Origin: Bythopirellula sp.
Lineage (GTDB): Bacteria > Planctomycetota > Planctomycetia > Pirellulales > Lacipirellulaceae
Assembly (NCBI GenBank): GCA_965216565.1
Contig: OZ244170.1
Coordinates: 4,736,001 to 4,800,000 of the forward strand
Direction: 5' to 3'
DNA: 64,000 nt
Shown here: in pieces, positions 8,402 to 18,506 of the stretch
Layout of the letters: every line of letters begins with the position of its first letter
Position numbering within the stretch: position 1 is the first letter of the stretch
Position numbers and translations under genes: made by a program
Notes under the pieces: generated by a model
The model's database searches: none
What the model saw: only the letters and a program-made list of their open reading frames with translations
Told to the model about the DNA's origin: nothing

Positions 8402-9226
8402 ATGCTTTTTCGCCTACTAATCCTGTTTGTGGTTGTTTCATTATGGTCTGGGCTAGCTGATGCCCAACCCCCAGAATTCGAGCCCGGAGACAGCTTCGAC
8501 ACAGAGAGCGATTTGGGGTTAGAACGCGGACCACGCGAGGGCGAAGAACGCGATAGAAATGGCCGACGGGGTCCGCCGCCCAATCCTATGTTCGAGGCAA
8601 TTGATGCCGATGGCGATGGTGTTTTAACAAAAAGAGAGCTGCGTAAAGCCGCGGCCGCACTCAAAACCCTTGATGCCGATGGTGATGGAAATGTCACCAT
8701 GCAAGAGGTGACTCCTCCGCGAGGTCCCAGGCGTGGCGGACCGGGTGGACCGGGTGAAGATCCAGCCGAGGCAATTGAGAGAATTATGCAACACGATGCC
8801 GACGGAGACGGCCTGCTGACCGTTAAGGAAGTACCAGAGCATGTGGCGAGAATGCTCTCTGGTGCCGACACCAATGGCGATGGCGCGATTAATCGGCAAG
8901 AACTTACTCAAGCCTTGGAGAACAACCGTGAGCAGTTTCGTGGTCGAGGACGGCAAGGTGGCAATGGTGGAGCTGGTGGTCCGTTGGGTCGGGGTGGCTT
9001 TGGAAATGACGATCAGGACACCTTGCTCAAGCAATTGATGGCGGGCGATCAAGACAATGATGGCCGTCTCTCTCCCCAAGAAGTTCCAGAGCGAATGATG
9101 GGTATGTTGCGCGGAGCAGACAAAAACGGAGACGGCAAGCTCGACGCTGGAGAAGTCCGCAAGGCGATGATCAAAGCCCGAGAACGGCGTCTGAAATTGC
9201 GAGATCGTTTCGGCGGTCAGGAGTAG
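8402..9226 (+). CDS. Secreted EF-hand calcium-binding protein
   Basis: Signal peptide (ADA-Q); six DxDxDG..E-type loops (e.g. DADGDGVLTKRE, DTNGDGAINRQE, DKNGDGKLDAGE). Confidence 0.88.
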   Translation: MLFRLLILFVVVSLWSGLADAQPPEFEPGDSFDTESDLGLERGPREGEERDRNGRRGPPPNPMFEAIDADGDGVLTKRELRKAAAALKTLDADGDGNVTMQEVTPPRGPRRGGPGGPGEDPAEAIERIMQHDADGDGLLTVKEVPEHVARMLSGADTNGDGAINRQELTQALENNREQFRGRGRQGGNGGAGGPLGRGGFGNDDQDTLLKQLMAGDQDNDGRLSPQEVPERMMGMLRGADKNGDGKLDAGEVRKAMIKARERRLKLRDRFGGQE

Positions 9227-16974: not shown

Positions 16975-17643
16975 ATGGCTGCCAATAAACCTGTTGAGAC
17001 GCTGATTCCGCCGCGATATATGTTCCGATTTGCGGTGGACATACACCACTGCAAACCGATTTGGTCCCCGAAAGGTGTGTCGCTCGGTGAACAATATCAA
17101 TTGCCAAATCTAGGGCAGTTGGATCAAGATCGGGCGTTTGCTGAGGTCCGGATGGCTTGGTCGCCGGAAGGGGTGGCGTGGTGGGTGCGAGTCGAAGACA
17201 AACTACAGGTGCCCTGGTGCCGCGAATCGAGACTCGAAGAGAGCGACGGCTTGCACGTTTGGATCGATACTCGCGCCACAACGAATGTCCACCGTGCGAC
17301 GCGCTTTTGTCACCGGTTTGTGTTCTTGCCCGCCGGCGGAGGGCGCGATGCGCAGCAACCGGTCGCTGATCAGTTGTTGATCAATCGGGCACGAGAGAAT
17401 GCCAGGCCCGTCCGTGCCAGAGAATTACAAGTTGCAAGTCGCGTGACGAAGTCGAATTACGAACTGTCCGCGTTTGCTCCGGCCGAGGCGCTGGGTGGCT
17501 TCGATCCAAGTAGTCAGCCGCGGTTAAGCTTTACTTATGCCATTGTCGACCGCGAGCGGGGACTGCAAACATTTTCTGCTGGACCAGGAATTCCGTACGA
17601 AGAAGATCCAAGCTGCTGGGCCGAGGCCCATTTAGTGGAGTGA
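16975..17643 (+). CDS. DOMON/CBM9-like hypothetical protein
   Basis: VRMAWSPEG, DGLHVWIDTR, FTYAIVD pattern typical of CBM9-like beta sandwiches. Confidence 0.55.
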   Translation: MAANKPVETLIPPRYMFRFAVDIHHCKPIWSPKGVSLGEQYQLPNLGQLDQDRAFAEVRMAWSPEGVAWWVRVEDKLQVPWCRESRLEESDGLHVWIDTRATTNVHRATRFCHRFVFLPAGGGRDAQQPVADQLLINRARENARPVRARELQVASRVTKSNYELSAFAPAEALGGFDPSSQPRLSFTYAIVDRERGLQTFSAGPGIPYEEDPSCWAEAHLVE

Positions 17644-17655
17644 AAATTCTAGAAT

Positions 17656-17688
17656 AAAAAAACCCGCCAACCGAAGTCAGCGGGTTTT
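17656..17688 (-). terminator. Rho-independent terminator (possibly bidirectional)
   Basis: Minus strand CCCGCTGAC-TTCG-GTTGGCGGG followed by T7; lies between convergent genes. Confidence 0.85.
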
Positions 17689-17717: not shown

Positions 17718-18206
17718 TTAGACGAGCAATTCTTCGTCATCTTCGTGGTCGTCATCTTTCTCGCACTCGCCACAGTGGGCTAGCAACTCTTCTTCGTCGC
17801 CGTCGTCGTCCTTTTCGCACTCACCACAGTGGGCTAGCAACTCTTCTTCGTCGCCATCGTCGTCCTTCTCGCACTCACCACAGTGGGCTAGCAACTCTTC
17901 TTCGTCGCCGTCGTCGTCCTTTTCGCACTCACCACAATGGGCCAGAAGCTCTTCTTCGTCGCCATCGTCGTCTTTTTCGCACTCACCACAGTGGGCTAGC
18001 AACTCTTCTTCGTCGCCATCGTCGTCCTTCTCGCACTCACCGCAATGGGCTAGCAACTCTTCTTCGTCGCCATCGTCGTCCTTTTCGCACTCACCACAAT
18101 GAGCATAGGTGTCGAGGGTTTCGTCGCTGACGGACAGGTCGTTATTGCCAAATGCAAAAAGAGCTAGCAAAGACAAGCCAAAGATAGATGTGATCAATTT
18201 CTTCAT
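17718..18206 (-). CDS. Secreted acidic tandem-repeat protein, 7 x HCGECEKDDDGDEEELLA
   Basis: GGAG RBS, MKK-hydrophobic signal peptide, 6 identical plus 1 variant unit, synonymous-only DNA variation, own terminator. Confidence 0.88.
   Translation of the reverse strand: MKKLITSIFGLSLLALFAFGNNDLSVSDETLDTYAHCGECEKDDDGDEEELLAHCGECEKDDDGDEEELLAHCGECEKDDDGDEEELLAHCGECEKDDDGDEEELLAHCGECEKDDDGDEEELLAHCGECEKDDDGDEEELLAHCGECEKDDDHEDDEELLV
17721..18101 (-). repeat. Coding tandem repeat, 54-bp unit, 7 copies
   Basis: Unit visible directly, e.g. tcgcactcaccacagtgggctagcaactcttcttcgtcgccatcgtcgtcctt on the plus strand. Confidence 0.95.
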
Positions 18207-18506
18207 CGAATTGGACTCCCTAATAATTGTTTACGAGAACCCTGTTCTCGAATGGTAGGCGAATGCACCAGTGGCTCTTGAACGTGGTTCTAGGTGACCT
18301 CGGTTCGCACGTCTAAGCCTAACGAATAGCTTGTATTATATCGACTCGACTGAGCCGCCAAGGTGAAAAGCAATACAGTTTTCCGAAAGAGTTTTGAGAA
18401 ATCTCGTTGAAATTCGGTCGGAACTCATCTCCCCTTCTGGCCTTGGGGTTCAAGTTGTAAGGCGAAACGTTCTAGACACTTGCCGAAAACGTCCATAAAA
18501 GGACCC

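Follow-up and report, generated by a model that had tools for sequence, protein, structure and literature searches.

The window, the whole stretch of 64,000 nucleotides analysed here, comes from a Bythopirellula genome and contains a real gene under selection, which encodes a small protein of seven near-identical Cys-pair units behind a predicted export signal (Table 1). The N-terminal hydrophobic stretch reaches a 12-residue mean hydropathy of 2.54, which fits a Sec signal, and Tandem Repeats Finder reports a 54-bp period with 6.5 copies and 91% matches. The six identical units plus one variant described in an earlier note on this DNA are confirmed by ORF translation and Tandem Repeats Finder, the signal peptide described there is predicted from hydropathy, and a residue count agrees with its statement that nine of the 18 residues in each identical unit are acidic (D/E). 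It was also right that this is not a heme-c motif; the unit reads H-C-x-x-C-E and CxxCH is absent from it. An AlphaFold model has a mean pLDDT of 48, with a sole helix at aa 3-19 and no fold beyond this signal helix, and the protein is predicted to be disordered and Sec-exported. Two further readings were rejected: a lanthipeptide, since Ser and Thr are absent from the unit, and a lipobox (LLA-H-C), since the stretch ahead of it is an acidic run and not a hydrophobic helix. Public contigs over the gene agree with it letter for letter, but not one of them crosses the whole array, and the number of seven units therefore depends on the assembly. Contig depth in one run of undefined kind was higher over the repeat gene than over its flanks, although contig depth cannot rank genes.

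Table 1. Features at the repeat locus (window positions)
Feature	Position	Strand	Basis
Precursor gene, 162 aa	17718..18206	-	ORF and orthologues in relatives
Predicted Sec signal peptide, about aa 1-20	18147..18206	-	Hydropathy; cut after ...AFG placed by eye
Short acidic pro-segment, 15 residues, junction-like T-Y-A at end	18102..18146	-	Sequence
Six identical 18-aa units, HCGECEKDDDGDEEELLA, 54 bp each	17778..18101	-	Tandem Repeats Finder and sequence
Variant seventh unit, 19 aa, junction motif ELLV at free C-terminus	17721..17777	-	Sequence
AGGGAG, ribosome-binding-site-like	18216..18221	-	Sequence only
TATAAT, -10-like hexamer; TTG ends 18 nt upstream	18335..18340	-	Genome-wide hexamer/TTG spacing
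Candidate site for a CRP-family protein or Rex: imperfect palindrome TGTGA-N6-TCACA (7 of 10), 21 nt ahead of the -10	18362..18377	-	Layout recurs upstream of relatives
Intrinsic-terminator-like hairpin, 13 bp and T-run, probably shared with convergent gene 16975-17643	17659..17688	-	Sequence scan

The six identical units vary at eight nucleotide sites, which lie in His, Cys, Glu, Lys, Asp and Leu codons and are all synonymous; with about 9.3 of the 54 sites of a unit synonymous, the rough neutral chance of this pattern is 8e-7. Two Leu codons are altered synonymously in unit 3. Over 17 groups of near-identical units (grouped at ≥80% identity), codon variants number 94 synonymous against 13 non-synonymous. 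The core has a pN/pS of 0.007, the spacer one of 0.036 and the junction one of 0.065, values that the grouping biases downward. Purifying selection on the peptide, as previously proposed, is thus shown, and it acts on the core, spacer and junction of the units.

The neighbours of the gene in the window are purK, a hypothetical protein and a HIT protein, and naming them with Pfam and NCBIfam upholds the earlier observation that no maturase is adjacent. From the sequence the gene is likely to be monocistronic, and the earlier description of it as monocistronic with its own terminator stands in part. There is a terminator-like hairpin and a promoter-like element of its own, but the hairpin is probably shared, and no terminator-like site was found between the gene and purK, which lies 300 bp upstream on the same strand. 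The convergent gene, on the forward strand, encodes a 222-aa hypothetical protein with no Pfam or NCBIfam match, a clear relative of which is also found downstream of the repeat gene in two other genomes (G033 and G325). Elsewhere in the window, 8402-9226 (+) encodes an exported protein with many EF-hand motifs.

Family membership and conserved features

Judged from its sequence, the repeat protein belongs to an unnamed Cys-pair/junction family of planctomycetes and verrucomicrobia. No Pfam or NCBIfam model names the window protein, in keeping with the earlier statement that no family was recognised. Csx1_HEPN was rejected, its cut-off being passed only through summed repeats with zero passing stretches. 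A PDB sequence search with the window protein gave only weak zinc-finger matches (E 0.19-0.36), and ESM Atlas had no usable match for it; a relative used as query there gave unnamed clusters at 0.81-0.85. Protein searches recovered 7, then 18, unnamed relatives, including one from Bythopirellula goksoeyrii (Lacipirellulaceae). No description of the family was found in the literature searched, which includes few subscription papers.

The gene is present in at least 17 of 120 genomes of its own taxonomic family. Wider samples, in which only about 10-11 candidates per genome were scored, yielded it in at least 9 of 401 genomes across the order, all within that taxonomic family, and in at least 1 of 401 across the phylum, namely its own genome. 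These ranges are lower bounds, because three carriers (G012, G006 and G211) escaped earlier searches. A DNA pattern scan of metagenomes found at least 122 loci, among which five family members were recognised by eye (L039, L057, L088, L123 and L148), three of them of a Lys-rich type with an EGTLA-like junction; among the eight viral loci, the four frames inspected included no family member. A search seeded by the Lys-rich metagenome members gave 170 clusters at 90% identity, and among the best 120 of these, which were examined, the few names are mostly Verrucomicrobiota or Luteolibacter, together with one planctomycete and one labelled cyanobacterium. We note that the latter (P0123) looks verrucomicrobial. 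More than 100 proteins of the verrucomicrobial type are known in this way; when 50%-identity representatives were searched without a filter, 72 matches were obtained, again of these two types. At a minimum, these 170 clusters represent a conserved, unannotated family deserving a model.

For comparison, 150 family sequences, near-duplicates included, were divided by leader and junction type, not by taxonomy, into 37 of planctomycete type and 113 of verrucomicrobial type. A profile built from the 113 verrucomicrobial-type sequences alone scores the window protein at 109.7 bits, against a maximum of 21.2 among 720 shuffles that kept the signal peptide intact, and 29/36 and 111/113 real sequences scored above the shuffle maxima. 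Because these scores exceed those of the shuffles, the two groups share residue order and not composition alone. The similarity thus spans phyla, with convergence as a possible cause.

Across the sequences compared, strong acidity and His are not family-wide; the conserved parts are the Cys pair, the H or D that precedes it, and a junction that is hydrophobic and has Ala or Val at its end. Exactly two Cys are present in 70 of 92 internal units of planctomycete type and 255 of 318 of verrucomicrobial type, most often at a spacing of 2 (range 2-5). Of 162 units that start xCGxC, 155 have H or D as x, a count inflated by the search seeds and the DNA pattern used; HCG occurs in 22/37 planctomycete-type and 47/113 verrucomicrobial-type proteins, and many units begin G-K-C or are without the first Cys. 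Of the His-Cys-x-x-Cys core noted earlier, the Cys pair is thus conserved, but not the fixed form, since His alternates with Asp and the spacing varies. Median net charge per residue is -0.27 in planctomycete-type members, which have acidic spacers, and -0.02 in the verrucomicrobial-type members, which are Lys-rich with spacers near neutral; several orthologues have His/acidic spacers such as DHEHEGDDEE.

The repeated acidic-hydrophobic-Ala junction also survives in a modified form: it is conserved and in register with both ends of the protein, but LLA is not fixed, with LLA, SFV, TFA, LLV and GTLA all seen across the family. Most hydrophobic residues lie in the junctions, 604 of 675 in the verrucomicrobial type and 267 of 411 in the planctomycete type. 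The protein itself ends in hydrophobic-[A/V] in 137 of the 150 sequences and in 33 of 43 further representatives, compared with 83 of 2425 long ORFs of the window's own genome and 0.8% of shuffles; among the 150, Ala is the last residue in 114 and Val in 26. At the other end, a recognisable Pro...AxA is present in 101 verrucomicrobial-type proteins, and in 81 of these the first Cys stands two residues past the predicted cut of signal peptidase; past internal junctions the distance is 1-2 residues in most cases. With signal-peptidase site, junctions and C-terminus in register, the first, inner and last units would have equivalent ends. Units are uniform within a gene and different between species, their number differs even inside 90%-identity clusters (64, 83 and 102 aa in one cluster, for example), and in G820 and G821 two unit types alternate.

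The same genome also encodes a 72-aa look-alike without Cys (3404014-3404232, -), which has a signal peptide, two KSGKKD-acidic units, VLV/VLA junctions and the end ELRIV; it is divergent from a DUF3179 gene and has a similar palindrome and -10 upstream.

Gene neighbourhood and candidate regulators

Among the 17 carriers the upstream neighbour is purK in eight (named by eye outside the window), lpxB in four, nadA in two and an aldose epimerase in two, and at a verrucomicrobial-type locus the repeat gene is near tgt/yajC, with NUDIX and DUF1549/DUF1501. It stands alone among housekeeping genes that change between lineages, and in the flanks of relatives inspected no conserved neighbour is metal-related or encodes a receptor, sensor or transporter. 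At three loci of genus g39 (L163, L164 and L167) lpxB and a CYTH-domain gene flank the repeat gene (CYTH confirmed in L163 only). One locus (L009) titled as a Granulosicoccus MAG has ABC/RND genes, purE, purK and the repeat gene in the order of the window, and because of this match its label is probably wrong.

The palindrome and -10 layout recurs in 7 of 22 upstream regions, those of six family genes including the window gene and of the Cys-free look-alike, compared with 2.3% in shuffles, for a pattern that was chosen after inspection of the data. Seven of 21 family genes have the right half, TCAC, at the same distance, and promoters across the genome show no enrichment of it; TTG, genome-wide, peaks 19-21 nt ahead of TATAAT-like hexamers. 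Perfect TGTGA-N6-TCACA palindromes are enriched between genes of this genome (8 intergenic, 3 coding). Both CRP-family and Rex proteins read this palindrome, and the genome encodes two full CRP-family proteins and one Rex-type protein (gene 5140257-5140991). The spacing from palindrome to -10 upstream of the repeat gene is what we take to be a class II CRP position. ECF, sigma-54 and Fur-like patterns are absent upstream of the window gene, and a regulon scan of its genome with the strict promoter layout gave only four intergenic sites and no metal theme. The upstream sequence points to global redox or carbon control of the repeat gene, rather than to a metal sensor, which slightly weakens a role in metal stress.

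Other occurrences of these elements in the genome may be recorded here. Perfect palindromes precede apparent respiratory genes, such as an NqrA-like ORF at 1130958 (named by eye), which suggests a Rex regulon. At 116437-119276 the second CRP-family gene lies beside a gene for a YHS-domain (seleno)protein, with two 9/10 palindromes in the same promoter layout. A CRP-family gene preceded by a perfect TGTGA-N6-TCACA lies in a cluster at 3400000-3413000, together with DUF3179, DUF547, a 79-aa ORF for an exported Cys-rich product, a BBP2 porin whose N-terminal repeat is rich in Cys-Cys, and two GT2 glycosyltransferases, one of which reaches 164 bits on TIGR04283 (cut-off 182).

Proposed processing and possible function of the units

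The explanation we tentatively prefer, while giving it somewhat less than an even chance, is that the protein is a disordered, exported polyprotein; a housekeeping tail protease of the periplasm would cut it behind every junction and so release unmodified H/D-C-G-x-C peptides that probably bind soft metals (Ni, Zn or Cu) outside the cytoplasm. The precursor would be exported by Sec and cleaved by signal peptidase, after which a PDZ protease of the Prc/CtpA or DegP type could grip the hydrophobic C-terminal tail and cut after the next junction Ala; release would be processive, since each cut after a junction Ala regenerates the same tail. The freed N-terminus (amine, His or Asp, Cys2 and Cys5) might then chelate one metal ion in the manner of a shortened nickel hook of NiSOD, while the acidic/His-rich spacer would offer a second, weak site; the peptides would serve to buffer metal or thiols, and a CRP-family or Rex regulator would control their expression. 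In favour of this explanation are the purifying selection on core, spacer and junction, the register of the junctions with both protein ends and the near-confinement of hydrophobic residues to them, the Cys pairs with H or D and the His/acidic spacers as potential metal ligands, and the disordered model. In a bolder form, which we regard as decidedly unlikely, this is a maturase-free system in the periplasm of two PVC phyla, in which a self-regenerating C-terminal motif read by a housekeeping PDZ tail protease frees identical nickel-hook-like metallopeptides singly, to store metal or dismutate superoxide.

According to PMC12460800, E. coli Prc degrades its substrates from C to N, leaves in vivo termini that are solely Ala (15) or Val (5), and acts on unstructured chains with an apolar Ala/Val tail; after the cut it favours small hydrophobic or uncharged polar residues and shuns bulky aromatic and positively charged ones. 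The repeat protein has the attributes of a Prc/Tsp substrate, with an apolar Ala/Val tail and an unstructured, predicted periplasmic chain, and its genome encodes three S41 peptidases. It would, however, place His or Asp after the cut, and these are not residues that Prc prefers. For the metal site, NiSOD binds Ni through His1, Cys2 and Cys6, and 7-mer peptides with these residues bind Ni and are active with His1 replaced and inactive with an acetylated N-terminus, according to PMC5722923. The exported NiSOD of this genome (gene 3898791-3899165, ordinary signal peptide) begins HCEVPCG after ...YLAA, and no SodX over the cut-off was found in the genome. A strict nickel hook fits poorly, because Cys spacing ranges from 2 to 5 and many units are G-K-C or without the first Cys; nor does the repeat protein match PF09055, and its disordered model has no four-helix bundle. 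NiSOD (PF09055) is present in 55 of the 120 genomes of the taxonomic family and in 14 of the 17 carriers, being absent from a 95%-complete carrier (G211). Within the genus its presence in 9 of 10 carriers compares with 12 of 17 non-carriers, and co-occurrence as a link to the repeat gene, which vanishes at this level, was discarded. That NiSOD does not track the repeat gene within the genus, and that metal-related genes are not conserved neighbours, both count against the preferred explanation.

Two other readings dispense with cleavage or with metal. The protein could stay intact in the periplasm and bind several metal ions with its Cys pairs, as a polymer resembling metallothionein; the junction would then be no more than a C-terminal degron or contact motif duplicated together with the units. 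If an entire mini-protein was duplicated, the same register would arise with no cleavage at all, a point that also tells against the preferred explanation, and the variable unit number within 90%-identity clusters and the disordered AlphaFold model fit such a polymer as well. Purifying selection on internal junctions (pN/pS 0.065, and the two synonymous Leu changes of unit 3) counts against it, and Prc attacks substrates of just this kind, unstructured and with an apolar Ala/Val tail (PMC12460800); we think this polymer unlikely, if far from negligible. The same can be said of a reading in which oxidation turns each Cys pair into a small disulfide loop; the units, whether cleaved or still joined, would then be a thiol/disulfide buffer of the periplasm or secreted signal peptides specific to the species, and not metal chelators. 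The genome encodes VKOR, so exported Cys pairs may be oxidised, which also tells against the preferred explanation. Two Cys per unit at a free spacing, units that are uniform in a gene and differ between species, and an upstream palindrome that fits Rex or CRP and not a metal regulator all favour this reading. The Cys-free look-alike with the same junctions in the same genome speaks against the preferred explanation and suggests that the frame has a role of its own. On the other hand, the H or D beside the Cys and the His-rich spacers would be superfluous for a loop, and a signal or buffer of this kind has no receptor, sensor or transporter as a conserved neighbour.

The two remaining alternatives, both raised in the earlier note, have fared worse. 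The first is a RiPP precursor with cysteines altered in trans, by an MNIO of the bufferin/oxazolin type or another maturase. The combination of signal peptide and Cys repeats resembles HvfA and bufferins, and the best-scoring relative on the HvfA model, a verrucomicrobial member, reaches a weak 15.1 bits (cut-off 95); the window protein has no match to DUF2282, HvfA NF050188 and similar precursor models. Yet MNIO (PF05114), in searches where positive controls worked, is present in 4 of the 120 genomes and in none of the 17 carriers, including the window's own genome (G000; 94% complete, one contig), and in PMC12452194 just 67 of 2583 Buf_EGKCG-precursor genomes are without MNIO. In the window's own genome YcaO is absent and no PqqD/RRE exceeds the cut-off, the single PqqD match lying below it, and the flanks inspected contain no maturase near the precursor gene. 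D/E at Cys+4, a ranthipeptide-like motif, is not family-wide either (0.25 against a background of 0.30 in verrucomicrobial-type members). With MNIO in 0/17 carriers, and YcaO and above-cut-off PqqD missing from the window's own genome, modification in trans is not supported for the planctomycete branch, and we consider it very improbable. We give an equally small chance to an acidic protein that binds calcium or templates a biomineral. D/E make up half of each unit and planctomycete-type members are strongly acidic, but this acidity is lineage-specific, which weakens the biomineral template; the Lys-rich verrucomicrobial-type proteins are near neutral, and it is the Cys and the junction that are conserved.

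Comparison with known systems

Bacterial metallothioneins and nickel stores (SmtA, Hpn and the SlyD tail) are cytoplasmic, small, disordered and rich in Cys, His and acidic residues, with no junction-delimited units. The repeat protein shares this small, disordered, Cys/His/acid-rich character but differs by its junction-delimited units and predicted export, and it has no Pfam match among metallothionein family models.

Buf_EGKCG/oxazolin (HvfA) and bufferins are MNIO-modified copper-binding RiPPs (passages of PMC12452194 and PMC11252979). They have in common with the repeat family a Sec signal peptide, repeated Cys motifs, small size and sometimes stand-alone genes; by hydropathy and sequence the window protein shows the Sec signal and Cys repeats of such precursors, and some verrucomicrobial members contain EGKC-like words, as in Buf_EGKCG. 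The repeat family differs in being without MNIO in the 17 carrier genomes and without an above-cut-off model match, and its hydrophobic junction, also conserved at the C-terminus, is not described for bufferins/oxazolin in those passages. The family would thus have the outline of exported Cys-rich metal peptides, but not the MNIO that defines them. In the same passages, metal peptides with a signal peptide and Cys repeats depend on MNIO, and the repeat family, in planctomycetes, does without it.

Like Prc/Tsp and DegP substrates, the repeat protein is an unstructured, predicted periplasmic chain with a C-terminal hydrophobic-Ala/Val, and it also bears the motif at regular spacing. In PMC12460800 these proteases carry out quality-control degradation, whereas programmed release of equal products would apply to the repeat protein. 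The junction motif would let a generic periplasmic protease free multiple peptides from one gene and, if the preferred explanation is true, this would be a bacterial multi-core peptide logic without dedicated enzymes.

The nickel hook of NiSOD (His1-Cys2-x3-Cys6) is the closest parallel for the metal site. A cleaved unit would expose a His-Cys N-terminus after Ala with a second Cys near, and the NiSOD of the same genome also has ...AA followed by HC, resembling the start of a repeat unit. The repeat unit is one residue shorter (Cys5), has no Pro and no helical bundle, often has Asp in place of His, and is present in multiple copies; the likeness is an analogy alone, with no homology detected. 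If the preferred explanation holds, the released peptides would be a natural counterpart of the peptide mimics of NiSOD made by chemists.
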